Assembly: GCA_044070495.1 (NCBI GenBank)
Contig: JBIPSI010000003.1
Location: forward strand, 1 to 64,000
Direction of reading: 5' to 3'
DNA: 64,000 bases
Source of the DNA: Spirulina sp.
GTDB lineage: Bacteria; Cyanobacteriota; Cyanobacteriia; Phormidesmidales; Phormidesmidaceae
Position numbers and translations under genes: made by a program. Within the stretch, counting starts at the first letter, position 1. The number at the start of each line of letters is the position of its first letter. Below are positions 39,552-59,084 of this stretch, piece by piece. The notes below the pieces were generated by a model. That model had not been told where the DNA came from and searched no databases. It saw only the letters and a list, made by a program, of their open reading frames with translations.

Positions 39552-39624
<73 letters not shown>

Positions 39625-41706: not shown

Positions 41707-41778
41707 TTCAACACCTCTTACAAACTGAACTTGAACCAGACTAAGGGCGGGTTCAACTCCCGCCCTACTTCTAGGCCA
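41707..41778 (-). repeat. tRNA-like intergenic element, copy 1 (diverged, loop inverted)
   Basis: Minus strand agtagggcggg-agttgaa-cccgccc..ctggttcaagttcagtt..gaggt. Confidence 0.85.
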
Positions 41779-42507
41779 TCAACCAAAGGCCAAGCTATGG
41801 CTAGGTTCAGATGGCCTGGATCGACCATTCTTGATCTCCAACCCCTTTGCAATAGCCTCATCACAGACCTCGGTGACGATAGTTTCATTGCTGAGGTTGG
41901 CAATGGTCTGGAATGTTGCTAGCAAGGCTTCGTAGCTTTGGTGAGCGACTAACACCAGATTGGCTTCGAGGTCGTGTTGAAGCACAGTAATCTCTGGAAT
42001 GTTGAGTGGCTCGATGCTGCCATAGCCGCTAGCAAGGTCTTCAACATCAACATCTAGGGAACCCCGCGAGTCGTGATAAAGCTGTAGGGCGGCTCGGATG
42101 GTGGCTAGGCGGCGGTCAGAGAGAGCGCCAGGACTCCTAGGCTCAGGATTCATCCGGGCCTGTGCGAGGGCACAGGTAAGCTGGCGGCTATTCGGGTCGA
42201 TGACGCCGGAGGCAATAGCTTGAGCGATGCTGAGAACCATTTCAAAGTCACCCGTAATCGGGATGACCATGCCGCCGCCGCGCACCCGATAGAACACTTG
42301 ACCGTCAATCTGTAGCGCTGAGATGGTGGCTGGGCAAGCATTGCTGTTTCGCGCACGGAAATTGGCTAGACCTTGCCAGAGGCAATAGAGTGGTTTGGCA
42401 CTGTTTGCCCACTCGCCGCCAGTATCCAGTACGCGCTGGCGGTGGTGAGCCAGCAAGTCTATCCCACTGTGGTCTTGACCGATATGGTTGCAGGATACGT
42501 TTGTCAT
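41779..42507 (-). CDS. Hypothetical protein, 242 aa
   Basis: gaggtcac RBS motif before MTNVSC. Confidence 0.7.
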   Translation of the reverse strand: MTNVSCNHIGQDHSGIDLLAHHRQRVLDTGGEWANSAKPLYCLWQGLANFRARNSNACPATISALQIDGQVFYRVRGGGMVIPITGDFEMVLSIAQAIASGVIDPNSRQLTCALAQARMNPEPRSPGALSDRRLATIRAALQLYHDSRGSLDVDVEDLASGYGSIEPLNIPEITVLQHDLEANLVLVAHQSYEALLATFQTIANLSNETIVTEVCDEAIAKGLEIKNGRSRPSEPSHSLAFG

Positions 42508-42510
42508 TGT

Positions 42511-42579
42511 GTGACCTCTCATGAACTGAACTTGAACCAGGCCAGGGACGGGAGTCGAACCCGCCCTACTCCCACTGGC
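42511..42579 (-). repeat. tRNA-like intergenic element, copy 2
   Basis: gccagtgggagtagggcgggttcgactcccgtccctggcctggttcaagttcagttcatgagaggtcac. Confidence 0.95.
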
Positions 42580-42581
42580 AA

Positions 42582-42875
42582 TTACACATCGGACTCAATA
42601 CCTAGACCTTTCAGCGCGTATTCCAGTGCGGCCTTACCTTTGATGGCTGCGCTAAGTTGAGCGCTTGCGGCATCAACTCGGTTGCCGCGATCTTGGATGA
42701 AGGCTTGGCCGCAGAAGTTGCCTTCTTGAACGGCTCGCTCAGCGTCAGCCAGAGAGGACTTTAGCCACCTGATAGCTGACTCTAGTTGGGACTGAGCTAA
42801 CTCGACTTCAGCAGTGGCTTGGAATAGCGCGACTTTCATCTGGTTCGCAACGTCTTTGGAAATTTCGCTGGTCAT
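42582..42875 (-). CDS. Hypothetical helical protein, 97 aa; first gene of operon P1
   Basis: gagg RBS downstream of the promoter repeat. Confidence 0.7.
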   Translation of the reverse strand: MTSEISKDVANQMKVALFQATAEVELAQSQLESAIRWLKSSLADAERAVQEGNFCGQAFIQDRGNRVDAASAQLSAAIKGKAALEYALKGLGIESDV

Positions 42876-43005
42876 GGCCTGAGCCTCTAGTGGTGTTTTT
42901 TAACTACATTTATATAATACATCGGAGCTATTATGGAGGGGTCAATTATTGCGAAAGATTCACGTTGAAAAGCCTGTTCTGCAAGGTTTCTGCGGATCGA
43001 GCTTT
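42876..43005 (-). promoter_or_regulatory. Repeated terminator/promoter module P1
   Basis: Core taactacatttatataatacatcggag identical to P2 and P3, plus tattgcg and ctgcaagg blocks. Confidence 0.8.
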
Positions 43006-43014
43006 GAGGCGATG

Positions 43015-43482
43015 CTAGCGGTGGTCACCACTGAGAAGTGGCGTATCGGTGGCCATAAACAGGGTGAGCTGTTGTGCTCTAGGGAAGGCTGCTCCCTTTT
43101 TGTCGAAGGTCGCCAGTGCCTTAAAAATGGCATCCACACTCAGCGTTTTTAGATTGCCATCTTTGTCAATGGGATATTCCCCCCGCCACTTCTGGCGGAG
43201 GTAATCAATATCTGCCCCGTTCAGTTCCATGCTGAATGGCACCATGGTGTTATTTTCGTTCCGCTGAACGCGATCACGCCATGCATGGGCAAACTCAAAC
43301 TTGAGTACCCAGAATAGATAGGCGGTGTCGTTCAGAATGCCGTAAGTCCATGCTTCTTTTAGATCTGATGGCGACAGCATCAAAACATCGTCCGATTCGC
43401 TACCGATGTCTGGGGCCGCACTAATGTGTGGGTGTAGATCAACAACTTTTGAATTTACTTGGGGCATGACATTTACATCCAA
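43015..43482 (-). CDS. Hypothetical phage protein
   Basis: Tightly packed in the minus-strand operon; QQLTLF near the C-terminus. Confidence 0.65.
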   Translation of the reverse strand: MDVNVMPQVNSKVVDLHPHISAAPDIGSESDDVLMLSPSDLKEAWTYGILNDTAYLFWVLKFEFAHAWRDRVQRNENNTMVPFSMELNGADIDYLRQKWRGEYPIDKDGNLKTLSVDAIFKALATFDKKGAAFPRAQQLTLFMATDTPLLSGDHR

Positions 43483-43484
43483 AA

Positions 43485-43724
43485 TTACAAAGAGTCTGGA
43501 GAACTGATCACGGTATCTGGATGACCGAAAATTGAGTCGAGATAGATTTCATGAATGACGCGATCACAACTTCCCTCCTGCATGAGAAAAAGGGCGAGGG
43601 CGGCGCTGGCTACCTGGTTGTAGTCGCGCCGGGGATGACGCCTCACATAGCCTTCGACAGCGGTTAGCAAAACTTCGGGGATCACGATTTTGCTGGTTGC
43701 CATCGCATGATGTGGGGTGGGCAT
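43485..43724 (-). CDS. DUF2811-like protein
   Basis: IPE.L...HP..D.....AALALFLMQ.G..DR...YLDSIF pattern. Confidence 0.65.
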   Translation of the reverse strand: MPTPHHAMATSKIVIPEVLLTAVEGYVRRHPRRDYNQVASAALALFLMQEGSCDRVIHEIYLDSIFGHPDTVISSPDSL

Positions 43725-43736
43725 AGCCAGATCTCC

Positions 43737-45824
43737 TTAGTCGATAGAAGACGTTTCGGCTTCGACGGTCTGCTGCCCAGCAGGCAGGTCGAAAAGCGGT
43801 GCCACCCCAGCGGGATACATCACTACCCCCAGATGGCCGACAGCCTCAGCGAAACGATCACGGTCAGGGCCGAAATAAAGAATCTCTAGGCTGAAGGTGG
43901 CCCCAGCCAGGTTGGGAGCCGTCGGGTTGCTGAAGCGGACGTACTGAGTAATCCGGCAAACCGCATCAGCATGGCGAAGATAACGCTGGTGCCAGTGGGT
44001 ACGGTTGTCGGTTTTGTTGAGAACAAAGAAGTGGGTTGGCAGTCGCCCAGCCATCTTCTCGGCCATAAACTTGAGCGAGAATGCTTCGTTGAGCGAGTAT
44101 GGGCAGTTGTCCCAGCCCAGGGTTTCGCATTCATCCTCCAGTGGTTCGACGGCCCAGGAAACCTCGTCACCCAAGGCGCTATTCTCCTTGGTGAACCGAA
44201 CACGGGCTGGTAGCTCGGTATGGTCATTACTGGAAACATCTAGGTCAAACGCATCGCGCCCCCACCGCTTTAAGATTGGCTCCCAAATCCAGGGAGGCGT
44301 ATCGTTCTCGTCATGGTCGATGATGCTGCTAGAGGTGGCCGGAGAAGCCCCCTTGGTCAATCGGCTATGCATCCTAGCCTGGGGTGTTGGCTGGGGCGGC
44401 GATTGGGGCGGCGGGGGCGAGGTCAAATCGGCAACACCGTTGCCATTTTGAGGGCGGAACAGGTCTACTGTTGGCAGCGTTTCAAGGCCTCCATTTTCCC
44501 AATGCACTGAGGCCGTTCGGCTCTCCACATCCAACGCCAAAACAACGCCTTTCCGGGTCTCTTCGCCAATTTTGACGACGTAATCGCCGACCTCTAGTCG
44601 CTGCCATGTGCCGTCTAGGACACTGCCTTCTGGTGCGTCCTGATAGCCACCTTCAACCAGACGATCATCGTCTTCCTGGGAATCAGGGGATGGTTCAGGT
44701 TGGAGCTTCAGGCGTTCGTTGGTTAGGACGTAGGACTGCCCCCGGTAGGTGACTTGCTGACCGCAGTAGGTAAAGCGGTAGTCAGGATGCTGGGCATAGC
44801 TATAGGTGGGTTTGTCACCCCACGCTGCCAGCGATACGACCCCAATTGCCTCAAGGGGATGGTTAGGCGACGACCATCCTGCTACCGTCACCCACTGGCG
44901 ATCACCCCATTCAAACAAGCCCCGGATTTGGTTTTGATTTAGCTTGTCAGCGCTGTATAACCTGTTGGCCCGTGCCAGGAGTTTAGGCGAGACTATCGCT
45001 GTGATTTCGCTATAGCGAAACTCTGGCTTGTTCTCATCCATGTCCCCAGAGGGGGCTAGAACGCCCTCATCTGAGTTGGGTATAGAATCCCCCTCAGTTG
45101 TCAGTTCAGGCAGGTTAACGGCAACTTCCGTAGGCGGAGAATCAACATCTACCAATCTGGCGGTCTCCATGAGGACACCGCCCCCGGCTTCCAGCCTGAT
45201 GTAGTTAAAGCCAACGGCCTTGACAATACCTTCAACGACATCCCCGTCTTTACCCAACCCGCGAACGTGATCACCAGGTTGAAAGCGCTTGGCCACGACG
45301 GACTTGGAGTGCTGCTCTAGAATTTTTTCGCCTTCCCGCTCCCAAAGCTGGGCCAGTGCCTCGTAGGTTTTCACGGCCTTCGGGTAGCTGAACTGGAAGC
45401 TAACCGAATCTTCGTACAGTTCTACGCAGAGTCCTCCCCGGCGCTTGACGATTCGACCGACCTGGCTCCATAGGTCGATGATCTCCTCCTTCGATAACGC
45501 CTGCTCCCTTCTCGATTCAGACAGGTAGTTAAGGGCCGACCGCAACGAAACATCAGCCCCCTGCGCCGATATCCAGCCCTCCAGTGAACTCCAGTTTGCC
45601 GCCACAGCCATGTAAGCCGAGATGGTGCGGGGGGCAATGTCCGGCAGGTTCTCGGCACACCAACGGCCCCATTGCCCATGCTTCACACGGGACTTCTGCT
45701 CAATCAGAAGCTCACCGAGGCGGCAACTCTTTTGGAGTACCGTCATTCCTGCACTCTGAACCTCCTGGTGTAGAGACAGGATTGTCGCGACCTCCATTGC
45801 TTCAGCCTGGACTAGCGCAACCAT
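43737..45824 (-). CDS. DUF3102 domain fused to a phage Dam-type N6-adenine methyltransferase
   Basis: N-terminal GELLIE.K..VKHGQW..W...RT...YM; C-terminal DTPPW..FDLD..NCPYS; start after gaggtcac. Confidence 0.75.
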   Translation of the reverse strand: MVALVQAEAMEVATILSLHQEVQSAGMTVLQKSCRLGELLIEQKSRVKHGQWGRWCAENLPDIAPRTISAYMAVAANWSSLEGWISAQGADVSLRSALNYLSESRREQALSKEEIIDLWSQVGRIVKRRGGLCVELYEDSVSFQFSYPKAVKTYEALAQLWEREGEKILEQHSKSVVAKRFQPGDHVRGLGKDGDVVEGIVKAVGFNYIRLEAGGGVLMETARLVDVDSPPTEVAVNLPELTTEGDSIPNSDEGVLAPSGDMDENKPEFRYSEITAIVSPKLLARANRLYSADKLNQNQIRGLFEWGDRQWVTVAGWSSPNHPLEAIGVVSLAAWGDKPTYSYAQHPDYRFTYCGQQVTYRGQSYVLTNERLKLQPEPSPDSQEDDDRLVEGGYQDAPEGSVLDGTWQRLEVGDYVVKIGEETRKGVVLALDVESRTASVHWENGGLETLPTVDLFRPQNGNGVADLTSPPPPQSPPQPTPQARMHSRLTKGASPATSSSIIDHDENDTPPWIWEPILKRWGRDAFDLDVSSNDHTELPARVRFTKENSALGDEVSWAVEPLEDECETLGWDNCPYSLNEAFSLKFMAEKMAGRLPTHFFVLNKTDNRTHWHQRYLRHADAVCRITQYVRFSNPTAPNLAGATFSLEILYFGPDRDRFAEAVGHLGVVMYPAGVAPLFDLPAGQQTVEAETSSID

Positions 45825-45864
45825 GGCGTGACCTCGAAATACGTTACATTTATTATATCGTAAA

Positions 45865-46185
45865 TTAACTATTCGGGATAGCAATACGACCTGAGCGAAG
45901 GAGAGCTAGGAGAGCGACTAGGGCGGATCGGCTCATGCTTTGGCGAATGGCCAGGAATGGGTTGACGCTATCGGCGGCGATCTCAGAGATGACGGCGACT
46001 TCTTGGGGGCCATCGGTGGCGGTGATGGCTTGGACGATGAGAGCATGGAGTCGAGGGCGATCCAGGATGATCCACCGTTGTCCAGCGGGCCTGCCATCAG
46101 GACGATAGGCTCGCTGACGCTTGGCCAAGCCACACAGCACGATCTCAACCTCGATTGCGGCCAATAGGGAACTCAAATCAGTCAT
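45865..46185 (-). CDS. Hypothetical phage protein
   Basis: Start overlaps the upstream stop (MTDLSS). Confidence 0.55.
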   Translation of the reverse strand: MTDLSSLLAAIEVEIVLCGLAKRQRAYRPDGRPAGQRWIILDRPRLHALIVQAITATDGPQEVAVISEIAADSVNPFLAIRQSMSRSALVALLALLRSGRIAIPNS

Positions 46186-46657
46186 CGAACCACACCTCCT
46201 CGGCCACGCTACCCAGGACAGCCTCAACCGGATTACGACCACTGGACAGGCTGGCCGTGCAGATATCTCGCCAATTGTCTGGGGTTGGTTCATGGGCAAC
46301 CTCGTCCCAAGATGGCAACGGTTGGCCCATCAGACGTGCCGCTTTCAGACGCTTTCCGTACAGGATGAACTTAGCCATCTCTGGGCAAATCTCCGGCCCC
46401 TTGTCGGCCCCTGGAGGGAGCGCTACAAACTGCTCCTGTTGCTCCCGTAGTCGCCGTGCTTTGACCTCCCGGATGATGGCATCCGGCTTTGCAAACTCCT
46501 GTTCTGCGATCGCGTTGATGACTTCGACAAAGCCCTGGTCATCAATCAGCGGGGCAATACGTCCGTAGATCAACCCGCCCAAGTTTGGCCCTGGTCGCCA
46601 CAGCTTGACCTCAGACAGGAACGAAAAGAATTCATCGAACACGGAACGGCTAAGCAT
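46178..46657 (-). CDS. Hypothetical protein downstream of the replication initiator
   Basis: ggaggg RBS; overlaps the stop of the rep gene. Confidence 0.6.
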   Translation of the reverse strand: MLSRSVFDEFFSFLSEVKLWRPGPNLGGLIYGRIAPLIDDQGFVEVINAIAEQEFAKPDAIIREVKARRLREQQEQFVALPPGADKGPEICPEMAKFILYGKRLKAARLMGQPLPSWDEVAHEPTPDNWRDICTASLSSGRNPVEAVLGSVAEEVWFDD

Positions 46658-47852
46658 GGCTCCCTCCTGCCGCCGCTCGTTTGGCCACCCACTCACGCAT
46701 CATCTTTTCGCCTAGCGACTCCGTTGCTGCTGTCCGGGCCTGGGCAATTTGTTGCTCATCTAAACCACTGGCCACCACTGCCGCTGGGTTCAGCCCAGTC
46801 GCCCTCGCCGCTTCGGCCCATGCCGCAATGTTCTGGTCGATCTTCGCTGGCCGAATAGCGGTCAAGAAGTTCCCGTTGATGCTGCGCCACCAGTCCATTT
46901 TCGGAGACACCCTCACCCACTGAAGTGCTAGGGCATGGTTCTCTAGTGCGGTGGCCTCATCACCGTCATAAAACTCGATGACCCGCTGTACGGCCCGGAT
47001 GCCCTCTGGGCTGATGGAGCGGCACCCGGCCCAGCCGTCCGGCTTGTGTTGGTTGTGGCTAGACACCCAGGCCACAACGTCTACCGGGATGGATGATTTT
47101 TTCGATCCGCGCCGCCCGCCGCCGGAACTTTTGGTCCTCGCTAGAGAACTCCTGGGTAGCGGCTGCTCCTGCTCTGACTCAACAACGGAGCGGGGAACTG
47201 GTGTGGCGGGTTCGGGTTCCGATTCCAAATTTTCTGTTTGCCCCGCCACCGTCATTTTTCCCCCTTGGGGGGTAGGGGGGTTTTTTTGAGTCTCTGAAGT
47301 AGTCTCTGTTATTGCTGGGTCGTTCCCGACTGCTCGTGGGTCGTTTTCGACCGACCATCGGACAAATTTGACCCATGGGAAGTCAAACCTGTCTTCTCCA
47401 TCGGACGAATTTGACCCATGGGCCTTTGCTTTTGCCCTCGCTGCCAGGTAAGCGATCAGGGGTTCAGGGTGGAATAGATAGTAGGTCGTTCGGTCGAATC
47501 GATAGCGAGGGTTCGGGTTCTCATGCTTTGAGACGATGCCATGCTCGACCAGCCGTGTGATCGCCTTCTTGATCGTGGTTTTACCGCCAAGTCCCATCAG
47601 TGCATCGGCGATGTCATCCAGCGTGTGGTACTGGAGCAGAGATTCGTCCTGACTAGGGTCGTCACCGTGGTTTGTAGCCACCTTATTCAGATGTCTAGAA
47701 CGCTTCTTTTCCCTAAGTCGAATACCGTGCCAATACTCGAAATAACTTAATAGTGCAGCAGCAACTTCACACCCAAAAATCTCGTACTGCCACCGCCGAT
47801 AAAAAACAACATCCTCATTCTCTGGATGAGGTAGCACCCAACAATCTTTCAT
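46650..47852 (-). CDS. Putative phage replication initiator (replisome organizer-like)
   Basis: N-terminal wHTH (AAALLSYF...TIKKAITRL...DRTTYY), internal iterons, ETTSETQKNPPTP linker. Confidence 0.7.
   Translation of the reverse strand: MKDCWVLPHPENEDVVFYRRWQYEIFGCEVAAALLSYFEYWHGIRLREKKRSRHLNKVATNHGDDPSQDESLLQYHTLDDIADALMGLGGKTTIKKAITRLVEHGIVSKHENPNPRYRFDRTTYYLFHPEPLIAYLAARAKAKAHGSNSSDGEDRFDFPWVKFVRWSVENDPRAVGNDPAITETTSETQKNPPTPQGGKMTVAGQTENLESEPEPATPVPRSVVESEQEQPLPRSSLARTKSSGGGRRGSKKSSIPVDVVAWVSSHNQHKPDGWAGCRSISPEGIRAVQRVIEFYDGDEATALENHALALQWVRVSPKMDWWRSINGNFLTAIRPAKIDQNIAAWAEAARATGLNPAAVVASGLDEQQIAQARTAATESLGEKMMREWVAKRAAAGGSHA
47318..47422. repeat. Iteron-like direct repeats inside the rep gene (putative origin)
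   Basis: ccatcggac(a/g)aatttgacccatggg at 47355 and 47398; gggtcgttYYcgac twice. Confidence 0.7.
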
Positions 47853-48207
47853 GCTAGAATAGTTCCATTACTTCACGGACTTAATTGCTCCTGACTGCTG
47901 GTAACTCTGCTTATCCAACCGCTTCGTTACCTGGCAGAATCAATCCCTGCATTGCGCCCGCCTTGCAGGGATTTTTATATGCTACATCTAAATCGTATCC
48001 CTTATACGGGATGCCATAGACGAAGTAAAGCCAAGGATAAGGGTCAAGGCCCATAGCCCTGCTGCTACGGGGAGAATACCGATATTGATGCTTCTCCCAT
48101 AGGTTCTAGCCACAATTTCATTGGTAGGAAATTTGATGGGTTTCAACATGATCACAGCTTCTTCTTCTAAGGGGCAATTCAATTTGACGAATGGGCTTTG
48201 AATTCAG

Positions 48208-49476
48208 TTAAACCACCTCAACTGTTACCGTCTTAGTCTGCATAGCCTCTGCTTGTTTCTTATTAATCAGCTTCAGGATTTCGGAGCCAGCTATCGGGGG
48301 CAGTTCTCCAGACTCGATATGATTGCCGACAGATTTAATGAAAGACTCGGCCTCTTCGAGTTGGGACTTACTCAACTCAATTACCAAATCTTTCCAAAGC
48401 GGATTGTCTCGCCACGCTGGATCAATATCAACATCGACGGTGGCTGGAGTCGGAGGCTTTGGGGCTAACCTTTCGTAAGCCCGGTCAACCAACACCGCAA
48501 TGCTGCCCCTAGCCTCTGGGGGCAGATGGCCAGAACTAACGTAGCGAAGCGCCTTGTCTCGGTAACGGGCAATGTCACGCACTTCGCTCAGGTTGGCAAA
48601 TGCCGACCTAATCTTGCCCCATAGGTCGGACTGCATGAAGTCTTCGGAGACGGGCTTGAGTTCAAGGGGCGGAGGCGGTTCAGGATCAGGCATCATCGCT
48701 GGGGGTAAGGCAACGCTGGCTCCTGCCAGTAACGGCTGCTCCGCCAGAGTCATCGCGTAGCGGTCGCCTGCGGCAATTTGTCTGGAGGCCCAGTCGGGAC
48801 TTACCTCGATTGATAACATCCACTTTTCACGACGGGCTCGACCACCGCCAGCGGTCGGTGTGCTAATCTTTTCCGGCCTGCGGGTTAGTAACAGTGGGAT
48901 ACCGTTAAGCTGCCCAAAGGTCATCTCAATCGCAGTGAGCTGCTGGGTCAGATTAACCAAGTCATTGATCGAGTGCGTCTCGACTGTCACGTAGGCGAAA
49001 CGCCCTAGCTCTGGAATGATCAGATTGAGTCGCCCTACCTCCTTACAGCCGCAGCTATTCTCCTCCTTTGCCTCATCCCGCTGGCAGGGTACTCGTCCTG
49101 GAAAGCATTTGATGAACTTGCCCTTCACCCGCACTCCCTGCATAAACTCACGATCACAGCGGACTTCAATGCCCCCGGCACCGTATCTCTCCATGGCGGT
49201 GCTCCAGTTCTCGTCGATAGTGGGATAGGGGAGTCGCACATTGATCGCCCTGGGAGTGTCCCCGTAAGCGGCCCTGAATGCCTCAGCAGCATAGGTATCA
49301 CGGCTGTCAAAGCGAAAATGGTCTAGATCATCGCCGTATCCCATCACCGGGTTACCATGCTTGTCCAATCGGGGAGAGCCATCTTTATTACGCATGGGCT
49401 TCCTAGGGCCACCCTTCCTCAACTTACCAATCCGAGGAAAGACCCCTCTCTGATCTGTCAGTCCTTTAATTGCCAT
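48208..49476 (-). CDS. Recombination directionality factor-like (Gp3-like) phage protein
   Basis: IGKLRKG, CD, C...CGC...GRLNLIIPEL, T.SIN motifs. Confidence 0.65.
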   Translation of the reverse strand: MAIKGLTDQRGVFPRIGKLRKGGPRKPMRNKDGSPRLDKHGNPVMGYGDDLDHFRFDSRDTYAAEAFRAAYGDTPRAINVRLPYPTIDENWSTAMERYGAGGIEVRCDREFMQGVRVKGKFIKCFPGRVPCQRDEAKEENSCGCKEVGRLNLIIPELGRFAYVTVETHSINDLVNLTQQLTAIEMTFGQLNGIPLLLTRRPEKISTPTAGGGRARREKWMLSIEVSPDWASRQIAAGDRYAMTLAEQPLLAGASVALPPAMMPDPEPPPPLELKPVSEDFMQSDLWGKIRSAFANLSEVRDIARYRDKALRYVSSGHLPPEARGSIAVLVDRAYERLAPKPPTPATVDVDIDPAWRDNPLWKDLVIELSKSQLEEAESFIKSVGNHIESGELPPIAGSEILKLINKKQAEAMQTKTVTVEVV

Positions 49477-49492
49477 GACCTCTTCCTCTGTG

Positions 49493-50836: not shown

Positions 50837-50857
50837 CCCAGTCTAACCTGACACGCA

Positions 50858-51277: not shown

Positions 51278-51674
51278 GTGCTTGGATAAGTTGTTGCCGT
51301 TCGGCTGGCAGGTGTGGCCACAGCGCCTTCTTTTGCGCCGATGTTAGGTATGGCCAGAGTTCTTCTACGCCTTCCTTGCTAGCCATTAACCTTAAAGACT
51401 CTGGATTGGTGAAGGCATCGGCAACCCGGCTACACCCAGAAAACCGCCGGATTAGGAGCCGCTTCGCTGCGGCTCGGTGCCGACGTTCGGCCCCCGCATC
51501 GGATTGTTCGTACTTGGTAATCGCCGCTTTGCGATCTCCACCAGGGCCGTAGCCTTTCGCAGCTCGCCAGTGGGTAAAGCACAGCCCCTTGGCATAGTGC
51601 TTGCGATCACAGCCCTCGACTGAGCAGCCTGGATCGGGTTCCCCTGCTTTTCGCCTACCCATTTTGCAATTCAT
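51249..51674 (-). CDS. Cys-rich putative zinc-finger protein (paralog)
   Basis: CSVEGCDRKHYAKGLCFTH motif. Confidence 0.65.
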   Translation of the reverse strand: MNCKMGRRKAGEPDPGCSVEGCDRKHYAKGLCFTHWRAAKGYGPGGDRKAAITKYEQSDAGAERRHRAAAKRLLIRRFSGCSRVADAFTNPESLRLMASKEGVEELWPYLTSAQKKALWPHLPAERQQLIQALEQPDQNDA

Positions 51675-51767
51675 CGGAGCCACTCCTGGATGCTATCATT
51701 AAGGCGAACTGAAATGGCCGACCAATGTTGCCCCTGTGACCTCGGACAACGCTTGGTCGGCTTTTTA

Positions 51768-53903
51768 TTAGAACAGCGCCAGGGTAAGCTGACCGAGCCT
51801 TGGGGAATGAGTGGGGCTGGGAACTGATTGGGCTTGAGCGGGCTTATCAACGGCAAGGAGCCAGGTTTGGGCCATGGTGCCAGAGGCTTTGAATGCGTCC
51901 GGCTCATTTTGCTCTTTCACCAGAACATTGGGTTCACTATCCAGCCACTCCCGAAAGGCTTGTGACATCCGGTCGGTTCTGAAGAAGGTAGCCGAAGATA
52001 GGATGGCCACCAGCCGCCCCCCTGGAGCCAGCAGGGAATCATAGGCATAGCGAATATGGCTGATGTCGCCTTGCCCTTCAAAGGGCGGATTCATGATGAT
52101 TCGCGTAGCGCGATCTTCGTCAGCGGGGCAATACTTCATGGAATCTGAGCCAACCACCTCGAACTCCCGAAGCTTCAAGATCTCCCGTAGGTCATAGTTG
52201 ATTTCCAGGGTTCGCAGGGTAGCCCTAGCTTGCTGCTCACGAACGGCCTGGAGAAGCGCTCCACCGCCGCCTTGGGGATCGAGCACAATATCATCGTCCC
52301 CCACATCTAGAAGGCTAGCCATCCGCTCAGCTAGGGGGGGTGGTGTCGGAAAGTAGCCCTGAATCTTACGATTCCCTACATGGGTCAGAAGGCGGTTAAG
52401 ACGCTCTTTTTCATAATCGATAACGACCCCATTCATTGTGATCGTTTTGAGCTGGCGCAGCAGGTCTGCAAGCTGATCGGCACTAAGGCTGAACCGACAC
52501 CGAAGGTCGGCATAATGATCCTGCTCCAGATTCTCCTGCGTAATGCCATAGGTGCGGATCACATGGTCGGTACCCCAGCCGTAGTCAGTCATGGCTGGAT
52601 GGTGTTGGGACTCCGCCTCAGTCATCTCGAAGTATTCGGCTAGACCAATGACCTGCTCAATGTCGGCCTTGCTGGTGATGACATCGAGACGCCCAGTCAA
52701 ACTACCCGTGTCACACTGATCCGCGATTGCTCGAAGAATGGCCTGAATGTGCTGGAGATGATAGCCACTCCGCCGCATGGCAGCGGCTTCCTCAGCCCGC
52801 TTGCGGGTATTGGTCAAACGGTCGGCCAGCTTGTGATCGATCTGGGCCTGCATCTTGTCGGCCATGGCCCGGAAGGATGTCGCTCGTTTGGTAAGACGCT
52901 CTGTCTGAGCCTTGCTGGCCTTTGGATTGGCTGGGGATGAAGCCAGGTGATGCTCCCCCTTGGCGCAATCATGGAGCAGCACTACGGCCTCAGCTACGAC
53001 CTCGGTATGGTTCCACCCTCGTCGGTTAACCCAATCGGTTACTTGGTCGTGGGCACCAGCGTACCCAGCAGATTCCACTAACCAGACTACTTGCGCTGTG
53101 GTGCGAAAGATCTGCTCAAGCACCTCTGCCCTAAGCGTCAACGGATTAGCACCAGATAGATACCAGAACGCCGCTCGACGAGCTTCCGTCAGACTTTCAA
53201 AGTAGCGATTGGGCCTACGTCCAACGTGGCGCAGCGGATTGTAACCCTTTCCGTCAATGATGAGACGATAACCGATGGTGCGATAACTGGCACTGCTGTT
53301 GACTGGCTGGACAGTGAACCAAAGGCCGTTGTACTCAAACTGTCCACCAATTAGCTTGCCGTTAGCATCCTCGGCCCGTTGAGCTTTTGGTTCCCGCGTG
53401 GCCTTGATGAAGTTTTGGAAGCTTTCCATGTCGCCTTCTAGCTGTTCTGGTGCGGGCTCTGGTTCCCGTAAATCAGTAACCGCGAGGGCCATCCTGGTGA
53501 GTTCGGACAGACGATCAAGGCCACCCCCAACCCTTTCAACGTCGTCTGTGTCGGCTAGGTAAGGCTTGCCGCAGCTCGTCGAGATTGGAGGGACATCCAC
53601 TCCCCACTTCGCGCACGTCGCTTCTAAGACTTGGCGGAATGTCGATTCGGAATAGTCGCGTTCTAGAAAGATGTAGCGGTTCCCTCCAGCCAGGATTTCA
53701 CCTGTAGCCGCATCCCGACGGATGCTTTCAAACTCCTGGGTAATGGCCTTCACGGCATCACCGCAGGGGCCATCAACCCACGCGATCCGGATGCTGGAGC
53801 CCCCGCTATAGGTCTGAGATCGAACGGAGAACTTGATGCCTGGAAACTGAGCTTTTAGCTTAGGTCGAATGTTTTGAGCAACCTCTGCTGCTGACATAGA
53901 CAT
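51768..53903 (-). CDS. LPD29-like domain fused to an amino-methyltransferase (polyvalent-type protein)
   Basis: N-terminal FPGIKFSVRS..YSGGSSI.I.W.DGP; C-terminal YFPTP, LDPQGGGG and MNPPF. Confidence 0.82.
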   Translation of the reverse strand: MSMSAAEVAQNIRPKLKAQFPGIKFSVRSQTYSGGSSIRIAWVDGPCGDAVKAITQEFESIRRDAATGEILAGGNRYIFLERDYSESTFRQVLEATCAKWGVDVPPISTSCGKPYLADTDDVERVGGGLDRLSELTRMALAVTDLREPEPAPEQLEGDMESFQNFIKATREPKAQRAEDANGKLIGGQFEYNGLWFTVQPVNSSASYRTIGYRLIIDGKGYNPLRHVGRRPNRYFESLTEARRAAFWYLSGANPLTLRAEVLEQIFRTTAQVVWLVESAGYAGAHDQVTDWVNRRGWNHTEVVAEAVVLLHDCAKGEHHLASSPANPKASKAQTERLTKRATSFRAMADKMQAQIDHKLADRLTNTRKRAEEAAAMRRSGYHLQHIQAILRAIADQCDTGSLTGRLDVITSKADIEQVIGLAEYFEMTEAESQHHPAMTDYGWGTDHVIRTYGITQENLEQDHYADLRCRFSLSADQLADLLRQLKTITMNGVVIDYEKERLNRLLTHVGNRKIQGYFPTPPPLAERMASLLDVGDDDIVLDPQGGGGALLQAVREQQARATLRTLEINYDLREILKLREFEVVGSDSMKYCPADEDRATRIIMNPPFEGQGDISHIRYAYDSLLAPGGRLVAILSSATFFRTDRMSQAFREWLDSEPNVLVKEQNEPDAFKASGTMAQTWLLAVDKPAQAQSVPSPTHSPRLGQLTLALF

Positions 53904-53906
53904 GAC

Positions 53907-53972
53907 GTGACCTCTTGCAATGAACTGAACCAGGCCAGGGGCGGGAATCGAACCCGCCCTACTCCTACTGGC
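53907..53972 (-). repeat. tRNA-like intergenic element, copy 3
   Basis: gccagtaggagtagggcgggttcgattcccgcccctggcctggttcagttcattgcaagaggtcac. Confidence 0.95.
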
Positions 53973-53974
53973 AA

Positions 53975-54133
53975 TTAACAGAAGCGCTCACACAGGTCGG
54001 CTTCCATCTCCTCGAACACGGTCTCTAGGTGTGCCCGTTCATCTCCCCAAGTCGCCTGGATTCTGTCCCACAGCGCATCGATGATGTCTTGAGCTTCTTG
54101 GCGAGTGGTGCAGTGGGAAATTCGGCTGGTCAT
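53975..54133 (-). CDS. Small acidic protein, 52 aa; first gene of operon P2
   Basis: ggagg RBS before MTSRISH. Confidence 0.65.
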   Translation of the reverse strand: MTSRISHCTTRQEAQDIIDALWDRIQATWGDERAHLETVFEEMEADLCERFC

Positions 54134-54255
54134 GGCTTGGGCCTCCGGTGATGGTTTTTTAACTACATTTATATAATACATCGGAGTCATTATAAAATGT
54201 AGTGTATTGCGAAAAGTTCATGCTGAAAAAGATTGCCCTATAAGGGTTTGAGGAT
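54134..54255 (-). promoter_or_regulatory. Repeated terminator/promoter module P2
   Basis: Identical 27-bp core at 54160-54186. Confidence 0.8.
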
Positions 54256-54275
54256 GGCCTTGTCTTGGCGCTGAG

Positions 54276-55436
54276 CTAAATTAGGGTAAGCTGAACGGTC
54301 TGTCCACTGAGTTGGCCCCAGGCCTTTTGGAAGTTTTTGGGGTGCTGGCATTTGTCCTGAGGTGCCCAGGGGCAAGCCACTAAGAATTCTTCGATGGCGG
54401 GATAGCCTGTGGCCCTGGTGTGGGTGTAGGCTCGGTACCACTCACCATCGAGGACGACTTCGGCTCCGGCATTGATGGCCATGATGTTTAGGGTCTGAAG
54501 CGCTCCCGCCTGATCCCCCGTCCAGACGGTACTCACATCACGGCGGGCATTAACCTGGGTGCGGGAGCTGGTGCCTGTGTTTGTGTAAATGCGCCGCACC
54601 CGATAGACAGCCCAGGGCGATGCCTGGAGCCAGTCCTGGTATAGGTGGATGGCATCGGTACAATGATTCGCCATGGCGGATTCCAGGGCGCTGCCCGTGC
54701 TGAGAAGATGCATTCTTGGATTGAAGGCCATCCCAAAGCCAGCAACCCACAGTGCCTCTGCCCCATAGAGCGGTTCCCGTTTCCATCGTTCGCAGGCTTC
54801 AAAGTCGGGTTGGAACGGACAGAAGTAGCAGCAACTCTTAGGCCACTTCACCCCGAAGGTTTGCTGTAGGTATTCGACGCAGCGTTCGCGGCCCCAGCCC
54901 CACTCGATCAAGGGATAGAAGTAGCTAGCGCTGCGACAGCCATAGTCATTGGATTTAGCCGCTCGCTTTAGCTCGTCGGCGTTGTAGCCGATGGCTGGAC
55001 CAATCGCCCCGGCAATGTGGTCGCCAATCCACGGATCAAGCACGTCCCCCTTCCACCGGATCGCACAAATGTGGGGTCGCCCTAGCCGAGGCACCGTACC
55101 CGCGCCCACCAAATTTTGAGAGAGTCGGTAGTCACCTTCGATATAGCAGGTTTGGGTTTCTCTGGAGTCCGACAGGACAGTGTAGCCGTCGGCCTTAGCT
55201 GGTCCGCCTTTAGCAACCTGCACAAAACGGATGCCGTGTGTTCTCAGGAGCGGTAGGACGTAGGTCTCTACCATGATCTTTGTGCTCCAGAACTCGTCGC
55301 CTGTTTGGGCAGTGAGCACGACCAGGTCATCGAGAGACTCGAAGGGACGAGTTTCCGGCTCCAGTATCCACCTTGCCAGGATGGTGGTCGAGTCTACCCC
55401 CATGCCGTAATTGAGTAGCCATGTTTTGCGTTCCAT
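54276..55436 (-). CDS. PAPS-reductase-like PP-loop protein
   Basis: NYGMGVDST PP-loop variant, IGYNADE, YPLIEWGW and KSCCYFCPF motifs. Confidence 0.75.
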   Translation of the reverse strand: MERKTWLLNYGMGVDSTTILARWILEPETRPFESLDDLVVLTAQTGDEFWSTKIMVETYVLPLLRTHGIRFVQVAKGGPAKADGYTVLSDSRETQTCYIEGDYRLSQNLVGAGTVPRLGRPHICAIRWKGDVLDPWIGDHIAGAIGPAIGYNADELKRAAKSNDYGCRSASYFYPLIEWGWGRERCVEYLQQTFGVKWPKSCCYFCPFQPDFEACERWKREPLYGAEALWVAGFGMAFNPRMHLLSTGSALESAMANHCTDAIHLYQDWLQASPWAVYRVRRIYTNTGTSSRTQVNARRDVSTVWTGDQAGALQTLNIMAINAGAEVVLDGEWYRAYTHTRATGYPAIEEFLVACPWAPQDKCQHPKNFQKAWGQLSGQTVQLTLI

Positions 55437-55454
55437 TGCCCTGAATCCTTTGGG

Positions 55455-55811
55455 TTAGCAGATCTCGATTGCGCCTTCGTATCCCTGAACGGAAACAGGG
55501 TCGAGCATGATGGTGTCCCAGATTTCGATGCGGGGTGAAGGGTCGTCCCACAAAACGGCAACGGCGTTGCCATTTTGCAAAACCTCAACGACCCCACCCT
55601 CGCCACCCCCCGGTTCGCAAAACCGCACTCGGTCGCCAAACTGGGGTCGCCACGGAATCAGCAGATATTCCTCTCGCTCCCACTCAGGGGCTACCTCGTC
55701 GTACTGCTCCTGGGTGAGGCTGGCGGAGCCGTGAAGTTCCATGCCCTCGCCATCAACCAAGATGTAGATGCGCTGTTTCTGGTGGATGCGATCAAAGGAT
55801 GCGTCCGTCAT
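55455..55811 (-). CDS. Hypothetical acidic protein, 118 aa
   Basis: gaggtcac RBS motif; SH3-like GDRV...G.V...V.WD segment. Confidence 0.65.
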   Translation of the reverse strand: MTDASFDRIHQKQRIYILVDGEGMELHGSASLTQEQYDEVAPEWEREEYLLIPWRPQFGDRVRFCEPGGGEGGVVEVLQNGNAVAVLWDDPSPRIEIWDTIMLDPVSVQGYEGAIEIC

Positions 55812-55814
55812 GGT

Positions 55815-55880
55815 GTGACCTCTTGGAATGAACTGAACCAGGCCAGGGACGGGAATCGAACCCGCCCTACTCCCACTGGC
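55815..55880 (-). repeat. tRNA-like intergenic element, copy 4
   Basis: gccagtgggagtagggcgggttcgattcccgtccctggcctggttcagttcattccaagaggtcac. Confidence 0.95.
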
Positions 55881-55938
55881 GATGACACGTTAATTGAGCG
55901 AGTGTGGAATGGCCAGGGCCGTCCCTGGCCAATGTGCT

Positions 55939-56823
55939 TTAGTGCAGGGTTTTGAGGTAAGCGATCGCCTGGTTAGCGGCGTTGAGGCTGGCCGGGTTGA
56001 GTTGTCGCTGCCAAGCGCCCTCGCTACGTGCCCAGAGAAAACCCAGAACGTGACGGAGGTGCTGCCGCACGTCTTGAGATGGCTTCTCGTCAAACACAAG
56101 CTGCACCCGATTCAGGACGTGGTTGCGAACCACGGTCAGACCCAGATCGTCATAGCGGGTTTCATGGCTCTCGCCGTCCTCCGCGATGGCATCGTGCTGC
56201 CGCCGTACCGCTTCAATGCGGGCTTTGATCCGCCGAATGTTTGCGCCGTTATTTTTTAGGGCGTAGTCGGGAAAGCCGATCCGACCACAAAAGTCAGGAG
56301 TCAGCAGTTGTGCGGCCATCTGCTCGGAGACATCCAGCGCACTGGCCAACTTCCGAACTTTTTCCTCGGTCTCTACCTGAAGCTTGGCGACTTTACGAAC
56401 CTGGGCATTTGCCCGCTTCATCTCTGCCTGCCGGATTTCCAAGGCTTCCAGCTTGACCTGAAGTTGTTCGATGGCATGCGGGTCATCGCTACTGATGGCC
56501 TGGTTCCTGAGGGCAGCGGTGTGCTTCTCGCGCAATGCCTTCGCCTGATCGGTGGCGGCACAGGCTTTGTCCATCGCTGCCCACATACGCTTCTGATCCC
56601 GGCGAGCCCGACCTTCGGAGTGGTGGCCGACCAAGATGGGCTGGCCACCTGCAAACCGCTGGCCGATTTCCTGGGCCTGCTTATGCTGAGCTGCGGCCTC
56701 GCTCTCAGCCTTTTGGATGCCGGATTCAAGGCGTTCAATCCGGTGCTCTTTGCGATCATCTGTCACCTGTCGGCGCTGTTCCAGAACGTCCTGGATGTCT
56801 TGGGAGCGGTTATCGTCTGTCAT
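55939..56823 (-). CDS. DUF3560 domain protein
   Basis: GQPILVGHHSEGRARRD, ISSDDP.AI..L and NNGANIRR motifs. Confidence 0.85.
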   Translation of the reverse strand: MTDDNRSQDIQDVLEQRRQVTDDRKEHRIERLESGIQKAESEAAAQHKQAQEIGQRFAGGQPILVGHHSEGRARRDQKRMWAAMDKACAATDQAKALREKHTAALRNQAISSDDPHAIEQLQVKLEALEIRQAEMKRANAQVRKVAKLQVETEEKVRKLASALDVSEQMAAQLLTPDFCGRIGFPDYALKNNGANIRRIKARIEAVRRQHDAIAEDGESHETRYDDLGLTVVRNHVLNRVQLVFDEKPSQDVRQHLRHVLGFLWARSEGAWQRQLNPASLNAANQAIAYLKTLH

Positions 56824-56826
56824 GAT

Positions 56827-56895
56827 GTGACCTCTTGTGAACTGAACTCGAACCAAGCCAGGGGCGGGAGTCGAACCCGCCCTACTCCCACTGGC
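56827..56895 (-). repeat. tRNA-like intergenic element, copy 5
   Basis: gccagtgggagtagggcgggttcgactcccgcccctggcttggttcgagttcagttcacaagaggtcac. Confidence 0.95.
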
Positions 56896-56897
56896 AA

Positions 56898-57629
56898 TTA
56901 CATGTCGCTGCCACTGCCAGCCCATAGATTGGTGGACTGCCGTAGGCTCCTGTAGTCGCCATTGCCGAGGATGAGGTGATCTAGGATGCTTAGGCTGAGG
57001 GTTTGACCCGCCTGAATAAACAACCGGGTTAGGCTGATGTCTTCAAGACTGGGGTCAAGACTGCCGCTGGGATGGTTGTGGGCGATGATGGCGCGGGTAG
57101 CCCCGACCCGCAGGAGCCACCCAAAAATTTCCTTAGGGTCGGCAATGCACTCCGTTTTGGTGCCCTGGGCAACGACGCTGTAACCAATCACCCGCCCCTT
57201 AATATCGAGGGCGATCACGGCAAAGCGCTCCAGAGCTTGCCACATCAAATCCGAGGCCAAGAGGGTAGCGGCGATGGCCGGATCGTCGATGATCGGCTGC
57301 TGCTTTTTAGGGGATTCTAGGTAAGTTCTTCGACCAATCTCAATGGCAGCTTGAAGCTTAATGATCTGCTTTTCGGTCAAGCCTGCCTCCTTCATCTCTA
57401 GCGGGCCTGACTGGCGTAGGCGCTGCCAGGAGGCAGACTCATCGAACAGGTTTTGCTGGAAGCAGATTTTATCGATAACTTGCTGAGCTTTGTCCTCCCC
57501 AATGCCTAGAATCGTCACCAGGAGATCAGCAACGGTAGCGCTCCTAGGGTTGTTGTAGCAGCGGGCCGCTGAGAGCGCTTCGTCTTTTACCATCCAGCAA
57601 TCTTGGTTTTCAGAAAATAGAACAGGCAT
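56898..57629 (-). CDS. radC: RadC/JAB domain protein
   Basis: AHNHPSG...PS.ED and ILDHLI motifs. Confidence 0.9.
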   Translation of the reverse strand: MPVLFSENQDCWMVKDEALSAARCYNNPRSATVADLLVTILGIGEDKAQQVIDKICFQQNLFDESASWQRLRQSGPLEMKEAGLTEKQIIKLQAAIEIGRRTYLESPKKQQPIIDDPAIAATLLASDLMWQALERFAVIALDIKGRVIGYSVVAQGTKTECIADPKEIFGWLLRVGATRAIIAHNHPSGSLDPSLEDISLTRLFIQAGQTLSLSILDHLILGNGDYRSLRQSTNLWAGSGSDM

Positions 57630-57632
57630 GAT

Positions 57633-57698
57633 GTGACCTCTGAACATGAACTGAAACAGGCCAGGGGCGGGAGTCGAACCCACCCTGCTCCAACTGGC
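57633..57698 (-). repeat. tRNA-like intergenic element, copy 6
   Basis: gccagttggagcagggtgggttcgactcccgcccctggcctgtttcagttcatgttcagaggtcac. Confidence 0.95.
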
Positions 57699-58670
57699 TT
57701 ATTGAGCGAGATGGCGGATCTGCTGGTCGGAAACCTGCTGTTTGAGTAGGTTGACGGCCTCCATGACACCCTCCAGGAGGGACAGGATTTGGTCGCATCG
57801 TCCTTCCGTGAGTTCTTCCAGTTGTCCAGGTGTCATCGTGATGGCAGTGATGGCTTGGCCAGCGCTCTTAACCTGGCCTTCCAGCTTTAGCCATCGCTTC
57901 ACCACGGTGGGGTCTTCAATGTCGAACCCAAACCCGGCCTGCTCAACTTCGGGAGCATTCAGGACAGCTACGGCCCGCTTGAGCCGATCATGGGAGTTGT
58001 CGATCTTGCCCGTGCGGATCATGTCCCACAGCTTTTGCTGCCTCTCAGGCACCACCTGAGTCATGTAGAACGCTTGCAGCTTGGTCAGATCTCCGCGATT
58101 GAACGCTTCCTGAGCATCGGGGCAGAGTTGCAGGAGGGCCAACCGCTCGTTGATCCGAAAGACCTCTTTGCCCAGGAATTTAGCTAGCTCCTTCTTGTCT
58201 GCGAAGTAACCCTCATCCAGCATGTACTGGTAGCCCAGGGCTTCTTCCATGGGTGTCATGTCCTTGCGGGCCAGGTTTTCGAGCATGGCCAAGGCCATGA
58301 TGATCGAGTCTGGCACTGGCGATCCATCCACACAGCCCGTTTCGAGGCAGGCCACTTCAACCAGTTCAGCGAGGGCACAGGCCCGCCACCGCCGCTCACC
58401 TGCAATGATCATGCCGTTCGGGGTAATCGTGATGGGCTGAAGTAAATTGTTCTCGCGGATACTTCCGGCTAGCTCGGCCAGAGCTTCGCGGTCGAAATGC
58501 TTGCGCGGTTGATCCGGGTTAGGGAACACATCGCTGTGCTGCTTGGTTTTGAGCTGCTGATAGATTTCAATGCCTTTGACCTTGAAATAACGGGCACCGA
58601 CTCGGCGGGGCTTTTTAGATTCCGCAGGCTTTTTCGCCCTAGGTTGTCGAACCTTGGCTGACGCTGTCAT
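57699..58670 (-). CDS. ParB/Spo0J family protein
   Basis: PNPDQPRKHF, LLQPI, IIAGERRWRA and ENL.R.D..PMEEA motifs. Confidence 0.92.
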   Translation of the reverse strand: MTASAKVRQPRAKKPAESKKPRRVGARYFKVKGIEIYQQLKTKQHSDVFPNPDQPRKHFDREALAELAGSIRENNLLQPITITPNGMIIAGERRWRACALAELVEVACLETGCVDGSPVPDSIIMALAMLENLARKDMTPMEEALGYQYMLDEGYFADKKELAKFLGKEVFRINERLALLQLCPDAQEAFNRGDLTKLQAFYMTQVVPERQQKLWDMIRTGKIDNSHDRLKRAVAVLNAPEVEQAGFGFDIEDPTVVKRWLKLEGQVKSAGQAITAITMTPGQLEELTEGRCDQILSLLEGVMEAVNLLKQQVSDQQIRHLAQ

Positions 58671-58673
58671 GGC

Positions 58674-58739
58674 GTGACCTCTTGAAATGAACTGAACCAG
58701 GCCAGGGGCGGGAGTCGAACCCGCCCTACTCCCACTGGC
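58674..58739 (-). repeat. tRNA-like intergenic element, copy 7
   Basis: gccagtgggagtagggcgggttcgactcccgcccctggcctggttcagttcatttcaagaggtcac. Confidence 0.95.
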
Positions 58740-58741
58740 AA

Positions 58742-59067: not shown

Positions 59068-59084
59068 AGTTGAGTGCGGGATAT

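Follow-up and report, generated by a model that had tools for sequence, protein, structure and literature searches.

A tRNA-like minihelix at the stop codons of prophage genes in Spirulina sp. belongs to a structured RNA family of phages and may punctuate polycistronic messages

The first 64,000 nucleotides (nt) of contig C3 (JBIPSI010000003.1) in the 5.3-Mb genome of the cyanobacterium Spirulina sp. (assembly GCA_044070495.1), hereafter the window, contain seven copies of a short intergenic element in a string of minus-strand prophage genes. The 39-nt core of the intact copies is predicted to fold as a two-stem minihelix. Judged from sequence comparison, this core represents a well-supported family of structured RNA, with about 50 distinct sequences and near-perfect covariation, and the family would stand as such even if its mechanism differs from the one discussed here. 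We propose, at slightly under an even chance, that the element is a mimic of the acceptor stem, T-arm and elbow of a tRNA, embedded in polycistronic mRNA and read by host RNase Z and/or RNase P, which would punctuate the operon and cap the upstream cistron.

A 21-nt hairpin motif occurs seven times in the window at up to three mismatches, against 0.01 expected from shuffles, and is otherwise absent from the genome (all 74 contigs, 5,313,730 bases); the copies are confined to a 17-kb prophage stretch. The seven recurring intergenic elements described in the original prediction are thus real. All of them lie on the minus strand between minus-strand open reading frames (ORFs), and each ends, as had been noted, at the ribosome-binding site of the next gene, with GAGGT, 6-8 nt and an ATG (at 58670, 57629, 56823, 55811, 53903, 42507 and 41706 for elements 1 to 7). 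The six intact copies consist of GCCAG, an 8-nt bulge, a 7-bp stem closed by a TTCGAYT loop, and CTGGC, which pairs with GCCAG as a 5-bp outer stem; 3' of this stem follow an unpaired C, GTTCA-like spacer units and AAGAGGTCAC-N3-ATG. Together with the ribosome-binding part the full linker measures 66-74 nt. Mean identity among the six copies is 84% (74-95%), compared with 55-57% in the 75-nt flanks on each side, and in five of them the gap between the upstream stop codon and the stem is 2, 0, 2, 2 and 2 nt.

Two covariance models were used, R1, built from the seven window copies, and R2, a model of the core. Element 1 (58671-58741; R2, 75.2 bits) runs from the stop of an 80-aa ORF (58742-58744) to a ParB-like gene (ParB_N); its minihelix (58701-58739) comprises an outer stem (58735-58739 with 58701-58705), a bulge (58727-58734) and a hairpin (58706-58726), and its ribosome-binding tail occupies 58671-58700. 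Element 2 (57630-57698; 68.8 bits) lies directly 3' of the ParB-like stop (57699-57701) and ahead of a RadC-like gene, with the minihelix at 57660-57698 and a U-G wobble in the inner stem. Element 3 (56824-56897; minihelix 56857-56895; 74.9 bits) precedes a DUF3560 gene and has one additional GTTCA-type unit in its tail. Element 4 (55812-55880; minihelix 55842-55880, with a G-U wobble; 67.3 bits) precedes a 118-aa ORF, element 5 (53904-53974; minihelix 53934-53972; 73 bits) a 711-aa LPD29 plus methyltransferase-like gene, and element 6 (42508-42581; minihelix 42541-42579, with a G-U wobble; 73.6 bits) a 242-aa ORF.

Two copies differ from the first description. Six elements had been said to start within a few nt of the upstream stop, and this is so for five intact copies; upstream of element 4 (copy 55815) the real ORF ends 58 nt off, at 55939. 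The gap holds a hairpin of 8 bp with a tetraloop (55911-55930, minus strand), 8 nt past the DUF3560 stop, that looks like a collapsed minihelix without bulge and T-loop, in tandem with element 4; its arms resemble the outer stem plus the first inner-stem bases. Element 7 (41707-41778), ahead of an 83-aa ORF, is degenerate. It retains the tail and ribosome-binding site; the loop of its hairpin (41745-41765) is reverse-complemented (AGTTGAA) and the outer stem GCCAG/CTGGC is replaced, and it scores 67 bits with R1 and only 18.4 bits with R2 (minus strand). The proposed consensus of GCCAG/CTGGC plus T-loop is accordingly shared by six copies and not by this one, and the orientation on the coding strand is right for all linkers and ORFs, the hairpin of element 7 itself having matched the plus strand. 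The inner hairpin alone is inverted, with unchanged flanks, in two copies of two genomes, at 41745-41765 of the window and in the relative L017 (4623-4677), where bulge and outer stem are still present. Small hairpin-mediated inversions of this kind occur in chloroplast spacers.

The exact long pattern including the outer stem has no match in genome contigs and none in viral contigs, so a pattern that leaves the stems free was used. This first pattern (bulge end, part of the stem, and loop) finds 6 loci in genome contigs, 4 in viral contigs and 26 in metagenome contigs. Loci with both stems were kept by eye, a choice that is partly circular, and form with the six intact window copies a set of 18 sequences; dropped were L014, L016, L019/L029/L044, L021, L024-L027, L032, L036, L038, L041, L043, L045, L028 and L046, the last two of which look like tRNA-Sec, while the others are stemless or have a different layout. 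A second, looser pattern matches at least 121 loci in viral contigs. Among the 123 matches listed, 65 (55 distinct cores) combine an inner stem of at least 6 bp with an abutting outer stem of at least 4 bp, where a rough estimate for random sequence is fewer than one; 31 of the 58 failing loci listed are real tRNAs or tmRNAs according to ARAGORN. The same program, applied to 63 family loci, calls no minihelix a tRNA, and one locus has a tRNA nearby. Run over the first 100 of the viral loci from the looser pattern, R2 gives 56 matches, including copies that the pattern missed (three in L119, two in L097 and two in L127); G101 and L180 have three copies each.

Closer to the window, pattern and covariance-model searches find the minihelix in related prophages of Nodosilinea and Leptolyngbya. 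Within the genus, R1 matches 3 of 52 other genomes; it matches 0 of 48 genomes from other genera, and the minihelix is absent from 150 other cyanobacterial genomes sampled across the phylum. A BLAST search with one element against 50,697 phage records returns 354 records, nearly all of them true tRNA or tmRNA T-arms; the sole minihelix among them is in Mycobacterium phage Odin, as a single unannotated copy (KF017927.1, 50589-50643, minus strand; L055 1493-1547; 36 bits) 7 nt past the gp93 stop and before gp92. Odin is a cultured actinophage and hence a handy experimental system for the minihelix.

The 55 distinct cores are uniform in dimensions: the inner stem is 7 bp long in 51 and the outer stem 5 bp in 43, and the two stack to 12 bp in 45, 11 bp in five and 13 bp in five, with a 5+7 bp stack in the six intact window copies. 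The bulge has 8 nt in 45 of the 55. Its main class reads A-U-G-G-U-G-U-A, in which positions 1 and 5 never vary (45/45), although the search pattern did not fix them; the window copies belong to a smaller class, U-N-G-G-A-G-Y-A, also found in L106. The bulge, at first given simply as tgggagta, is not featureless: its GG is kept throughout the wider family. A 7-nt T-loop of the TTCRANY type closes the hairpin in six of the seven window copies and is reversed in the seventh; in the wider sets its conservation is not independent evidence, the loop having been fixed by the search patterns. The bases 3' of the stack are most often A-U-U-G-G (A in 32, U in 38, U in 33, G in 30 and G in 29 of 54 cores), and the window copies have a U directly 3' of the unpaired C. 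In the host tRNA gene calls (n=36), T directly follows the discriminator in 33 and at most one encodes CCA.

A continuous 3' strand, an interrupted 5' strand, a 12-bp stack, a T-loop and a facing GG are, on the predicted fold, features of the acceptor/T-arm/elbow part of a tRNA, which is what RNase P, RNase Z and the CCA-adding enzyme measure. The tRNA-like character suspected at the outset is in this respect closer than was first supposed, extending to an elbow-type GG bulge and to a trailer of an unpaired base plus U like that of the CCA-less host tRNA genes.

Covariation indicates that the fold is real and selected. In the set of 18 sequences from the window, its relatives and metagenomes, 95.4% of cells are paired and double changes occur at all five outer pairs, values reached by 0 of 500 shuffles; the outer stems, which the first pattern left unconstrained, vary in sequence yet pair. 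The copies of two relatives (G011 and G020) have GCCGG/CCGGC instead of GCCAG/CTGGC, a compensatory change, and in relatives the C-G pair of the inner stem stands at another position. Across 49 distinct viral rows, aligned by fitting to the R2 model, which favours the structure, 98.9% of cells are paired and double changes occur at 10 of 12 pairs (152 cells); sliding the partners lowers the paired cells to 41-61%. RNAalifold returns the same structure on this alignment. G-U or U-G cells number 18 and non-pairs 6, and wobbles outnumbering non-pairs argues that the sense strand is the folding strand. Covariation had been sought as a check in homologues, and it is present in both stems. Loci with the same flanks also differ by compensatory stem changes (L072 and L118; L119 and L122).

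Stops cluster at the 5' edge of the minihelix. For 14 of the 21 cases in the first set, the distance between the outer stem and the stop of a same-strand ORF is -1 to +2 nt. For the viral set, frames were defined as the longest open ones, of 40 codons or more, rather than by a gene caller; among the matches listed, such a frame ends nearby on the same strand in 53 of 57, and for 46 of these 53 the end of the stop falls in a range from 10 nt ahead of the stem start to 7 nt into the element. The antisense strand, which served as control, has a frame of this kind in 21 of 55, with the stop in the same range in 3 of the 21. All three stop codons occur as neighbours of the element. The distance to the next start varies widely, from about 20 to more than 100 nt, and other hairpins may intervene; some members have further conserved hairpins after the minihelix, and in L015 and L023 a terminator-like hairpin stands just 3' of it, as after a tRNA gene. 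By these open-frame counts, members of the wider family keep their position relative to the upstream stop codon and not to the next start.

In the mechanism that we propose, each element would act in cis in a long minus-strand early transcript. Its 39-nt core would mimic the top half of a tRNA, the outer and inner stems stacking to 12 bp like an acceptor plus T stem, and the GG of the bulge would stand in for the D-loop and meet the T-loop to form an elbow. The cut by RNase Z would fall behind the unpaired base on the 3' side of the helix, and CCA might then be added; RNase P might cut at the 5' edge. Such cuts would divide the polycistronic message at gene borders. The upstream cistron would then finish, shortly past its stop, in a compact 3' end that resembles a tRNA, and the downstream cistron would be set free with a strong ribosome-binding site. 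The geometry, the trailer and the lack of an encoded CCA fit a cut by RNase Z after the unpaired base, and a cut by RNase P at the 5' edge is possible in the window because the stops lie 0-2 nt upstream. Both host enzymes are represented in the genome above cut-off, by the RNase P RNA (253.6 bits) and by RNase Z (373.9 bits). A broader claim, which we hold with more reserve, is that tailed phages infecting various hosts (cyanobacteria, actinobacteria and others) have a tRNA punctuation of their own, in which elbow-mimicking minihelices at stops might be cleaved by the RNase Z or RNase P of the host, or by both, and perhaps receive a CCA tail, so that cistrons would end in a tRNA-like cap.

Several observations weigh against this mechanism. 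The evidence consists of fold, selection, tRNA-like geometry, position and host enzymes, while every cleavage step and the stabilising effect are what we infer from it. The helix is divided 5+7 by the bulge, as opposed to 7+5 in tRNA. Six of the seven window copies are no more stable than shuffled sequence (z -0.88 to +0.26), so the case rests on covariation and not on stability, and folds of 55 nt give the exact outer stem in two of six copies and a slipped version in four. The flipped inner hairpin, in copy 41707 and in L017 4623-4677, destroys the T-loop in the RNA. In 19 of the 53 viral cases the stop is a UGA that combines the final two bases of the stem with the first of the bulge, and an RNase P cut there would leave a message lacking its stop. 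The copies of one genome have lineage-specific stems in common (GCCAG/CTGGC here, GCCGG/CCGGC in G011 and G020), which points to homogenisation at the DNA level. At orthologous junctions the minihelix can be missing: L017 has a plain 9-bp hairpin 7 nt past the stop, and L018 a terminator-like hairpin with a T run in its place, so that a junction can work without any likeness to tRNA. The same plain hairpins and terminators, together with the link of the minihelix to the stop codon before it and the occurrence of terminators 3' of some members, favour a role at the upstream 3' end over that of a 5' stabiliser. Of the original idea that host tRNA-processing enzymes cut the transcripts, the selected fold and the presence of RNase P RNA and RNase Z in the host are thus in agreement, and the 5'-stabilised messages it envisaged appear less favoured.

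It is also conceivable, if unlikely, that the elbow mimic works uncleaved, by keeping the terminating ribosome in place to re-initiate on the next gene (translational coupling), by binding a phage or host protein that tunes translation, or as a switch that hides the ribosome-binding site. A stop that abuts or overlaps the outer stem means that a ribosome has to unwind this stem as it terminates. In some minimum-energy folds of window copies (42511 and 57633), the 3' strand of the stem pairs with the Shine-Dalgarno region, and the ribosome-binding site is fixed at 30-33 nt downstream in the window. This alternative pairing, however, spans no more than about 5 bp, and neither L017 2415-2469 nor the wider family has it; the variable distance to the next start, with hairpins that can intervene, also speaks against this reading.

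Relatives of the prophage separate the linker into parts. In L018 the same spacer and ribosome-binding module stand alone, about 100 nt beyond the terminator-like hairpin. Because junctions that lack the minihelix have other structures and the initiation module occurs alone, the linker consists of two modules: the minihelix, which goes with the upstream stop, and a module for translation initiation that is specific to the lineage. As a side observation, the spacer plus AAGAGGTCAC module without minihelix precedes RadC in this related prophage (L018 9340-9380), and the ribosome-binding word alone is found at two further genes of the prophage studied here (window ~59609 and G000 C3 ~67132, both minus strand).

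Gene order around the elements differs between related prophages. The homologue of a 97-aa ORF is followed in L017 by the element and then a methyltransferase, and in the window by the 242-aa ORF; the RadC gene is preceded by ParB in the window and by a PAPS-reductase-like gene in L017. The comparison of gene content between repeats, suggested with the original prediction, therefore does reveal a different order at the elements, and its alternative of recombination joints survives in the form of a side effect: the linker appears to have been copied and homogenised in this prophage and, being a repeat, probably serves also as a joint for gene shuffling. That this is its primary role, a stop-to-start repeat at the DNA level promoting homologous exchange of single genes with the fold as something secondary, we regard as improbable. 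Junction partners do differ exactly at the elements, the copies are far more alike than their flanks (84% against 55-57%), and the stems are homogenised per lineage; yet such a linker leaves unexplained the covariation of two stems, the wobble bias to the sense strand, the invariant T-loop and GG, the 12-bp stack and single-copy members such as that of Odin. A precedent is the promoter early stem-loop (PeSL) of T4-type phages, a strong sigma-70 promoter plus terminator stem-loop which, in the available text of Arbiol et al. (2010, PMC2839356), mediates shuffling of this kind. As described there, PeSLs are, like the present elements, short repeated intergenic modules among small non-essential phage genes, where recombination between copies shuffles genes; the elements of the window differ in lacking a promoter or terminator consensus, which also tells against a role as cassettes, and in having a tRNA-like fold with a T-loop.

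The multiplicity of copies in several phages (seven here, three each in L119, L180 and G101) would also suit a selfish hairpin element, akin to repetitive extragenic palindromic (REP) sequences or miniature inverted-repeat transposable elements (MITEs), which spreads in phages, lands behind stops and keeps its hairpin for a transposase that reads single-stranded DNA. Its presence does vary at orthologous junctions, the hairpin flips point to palindrome activity at the DNA level, and a G-Y-A-G/C run just 5' of the inner stem loosely resembles the GTAG motif of REPs. We nevertheless give this idea little probability. The element is not dispersed in the host genome, all seven copies being in the prophage, and it is found in none of the 150 other cyanobacterial genomes; its orientation follows genes (53 of 57 with a same-strand ORF ending there, 21 of 55 on the other strand); the adjoining of all three stop codons leaves no fixed DNA target; orthologous loci change compensatorily in place; and the tRNA-specific features go unexplained.

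Terminators usually stand just behind stops, and a true terminator-like hairpin occupies the same kind of junction in a relative (L018); Rho is not known from the host phylum. That the element attenuates or terminates transcription, or is a nut/put-like anti-termination site, and so paces RNA polymerase along the early operon, is still very improbable, since no U run follows the helix in the window copies, the family helix being mostly followed by A-U-U-G-G, since the 20 terminator-like sites in 41000-60500 include none at an element on the minus strand, and since termination needs neither the conserved T-loop nor the GG bulge.

A number of known identities were tested and excluded. A canonical tRNA or tmRNA gene is out, there being no cloverleaf called by ARAGORN and no D stem or anticodon arm; so is descent from a host tRNA, as 0 of 37 host tRNA/tmRNA calls share the 7-bp stem or the acceptor strand, and an att-site remnant of the tRNA-Arg gene in the window, the 3' half of which differs. 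The absence of a U run after the helix in the window copies excludes an intrinsic terminator, and a PeSL cassette is excluded by the positions of the five promoter-like sites and the minus-strand terminator-like sites, none of them at an element. Dispersed repeats of the REP/RAYT or MITE type do not fit copies that lie in one 17-kb stretch, all in gene orientation. Integron attC sites have the cores RYYYAAC ... GTTRRRY; the consensus has no such R''/R' cores, and no integron integrase is among the 31 ORFs scanned. Of two possible short reading frames, a mini-ORF in the main-class bulge (ATG GTG TAG) has a stop that depends on the variable first stem base, and a GTG-started frame through copy 58674 is not retained in copy 53907.

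An Rfam search over 39000-60000 at E up to 10 raises only the tRNA family (tRNA-Arg) to its gathering score, with a sub-threshold tRNA-Sec match (27 bits against 47). For one element the best full-length similarity is to mascRNA-menRNA (RF01684; 18 bits, gathering score 42.5), and other weak similarities are to the T-arm of tmRNA (17 nt, 13.8 bits), the tymovirus tRNA-like 3' element and YrlA; all are tRNA-like RNAs and all fall far below threshold. In ten viral loci, too, the minihelix has no Rfam counterpart. The radC family, named together with tmRNA as a possible identity at the start, is not listed for either the region or the single element, its presence in the library being assumed, and the phrase 'radC RNA motif' is not found in the literature searched. 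No description of an element of this type was found there; a catalogue of 10,006 candidate viral RNAs (PMC10690425), which in its available text mentions tRNA-like candidates, may list the family unnamed.

The closest known system is that of the t-elements of plant mitochondria. According to the sections available of Forner et al. (2007, PMC1920247), these carry the T-arm motif GGTTCRANYCC and stand at gene borders in mRNAs, some of them within the 3' end of an ORF; mRNA 5' or 3' ends have been mapped to their borders and ascribed to RNase P and RNase Z, and in nad6 and ccmC the RNase P cut removes the stop codon. The phage element is like them, as there described, in T-arm motif, in position at ORF ends and in the enzymes proposed. 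The t-elements are organellar, few in number and non-canonical cloverleaves, whereas the phage element is a 39-nt two-stem minihelix with an 8-nt GG bulge, often in several copies, and its processing is a proposal.

Other systems share single traits. In mascRNA/MEN-beta (RF01684) and in mitochondrial punctuation, RNase P and RNase Z act on a tRNA-like fold inside a long transcript and, by cutting there, create the end of the neighbouring RNA; RNAs of the mascRNA type are animal and full cloverleaf-like, and the phage element has neither anticodon arm nor D stem. The small phage RNAs C4 of P1/P7 and CI of P4 are matured by host RNase P and are trans-acting, single-copy regulators; they are likened to the present element by general description, as phage RNAs served by a host tRNA-processing enzyme (a proposal in our case), and not by comparison of sequence or structure. 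In Cluster K mycobacteriophages, start-associated sequences (SAS) lie in one orientation at the translation starts of many genes, with function unknown, and about half of them carry an upstream imperfect inverted repeat, the extended SAS (ESAS), of 17 bp with a variable spacer (Pope et al. 2011, PMC3203893). The available part of that report gives no T-loop or tRNA-like geometry for ESAS, and here the core is tied to the upstream stop, with the start-linked part a separate module. What seems to be new is therefore the existence of tRNA-like processing or punctuation signals in phage operons, with a defined architecture of their own; the general kind is already known.

If the proposal is right, phages would have a compact, portable means to set mRNA ends and uncouple neighbouring genes with no phage protein needed, and both the annotation of phage operons and the understanding of early gene expression would change. 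It would extend tRNA punctuation from organelles to bacterial viruses, as a counterpart of mitochondrial punctuation and the plant t-elements, provide synthetic biology with a 39-nt processing tag, and add a widespread class of structured RNA that is absent from Rfam. The early genes concerned here look like DNA-modification and anti-restriction functions.

Some further RNAs were met in the searches. Mycobacterium phage Bane2 (KF279413.1; L056 ~1444-1535) has an unannotated tRNA-like stretch with an apparent 7-bp acceptor-type stem and a T-arm and no clear anticodon arm; the T-arm match recurs across many related mycobacteriophages. One viral sequence (L019/L029/L044/L100) has a G+C-rich extra hairpin before a GGAGCA bulge and an unclear outer stem, and only its inner hairpin matches the model (29.6 bits). 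In eight viral loci (L072, L086, L098, L111, L118, L135, L161 and L168) the minihelix makes up the 5' part of a larger conserved RNA of about 110 nt, which has three more hairpins and double changes at 13 of 24 predicted pairs; L072, L086 and L098, those scanned, give no Rfam match for it. Glutamine-II riboswitches (RF01704) occur in three of ten viral loci scanned against Rfam, on the same strand and about 110-280 nt upstream of the minihelix (L072, 56 bits; L137, 43 bits; L108, 34 bits), which suggests units of riboswitch, small ORF and minihelix in marine cyanophage-like contigs.

The elements belong to a minus-strand gene string that spans about 59.8 to 40.9 kb of the window and ends, after the last gene, at a strong terminator-like 12-bp hairpin plus T run (41362-41391, minus strand). 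By Pfam and PHROG matches (31 ORFs scanned), the string encodes ParB-like, RadC-like, DUF3560, LPD29 plus methyltransferase and PAPS-reductase-like proteins, and also HNH, a Gp3-like recombination directionality factor, an O-like initiator and a Dam-like methyltransferase. Terminase subunits lie on the plus strand at 62056-64000. The sole ARAGORN call in the window is the tRNA-Arg at 39552-39624; a 374-aa ORF adjoins it (39754-40878, plus strand), where an integrase would be expected, and has no Pfam or PHROG match. The early arm (43737-61345) is rich in genes of DNA-modification or anti-restriction type, among which are a Dam-like domain, LPD29 plus methyltransferase, PAPS-reductase-like, ParB-like, RadC-like and DUF3560 proteins, and its plus strand encodes a DAM-like-phage1 plus GNAT-phage-like protein.

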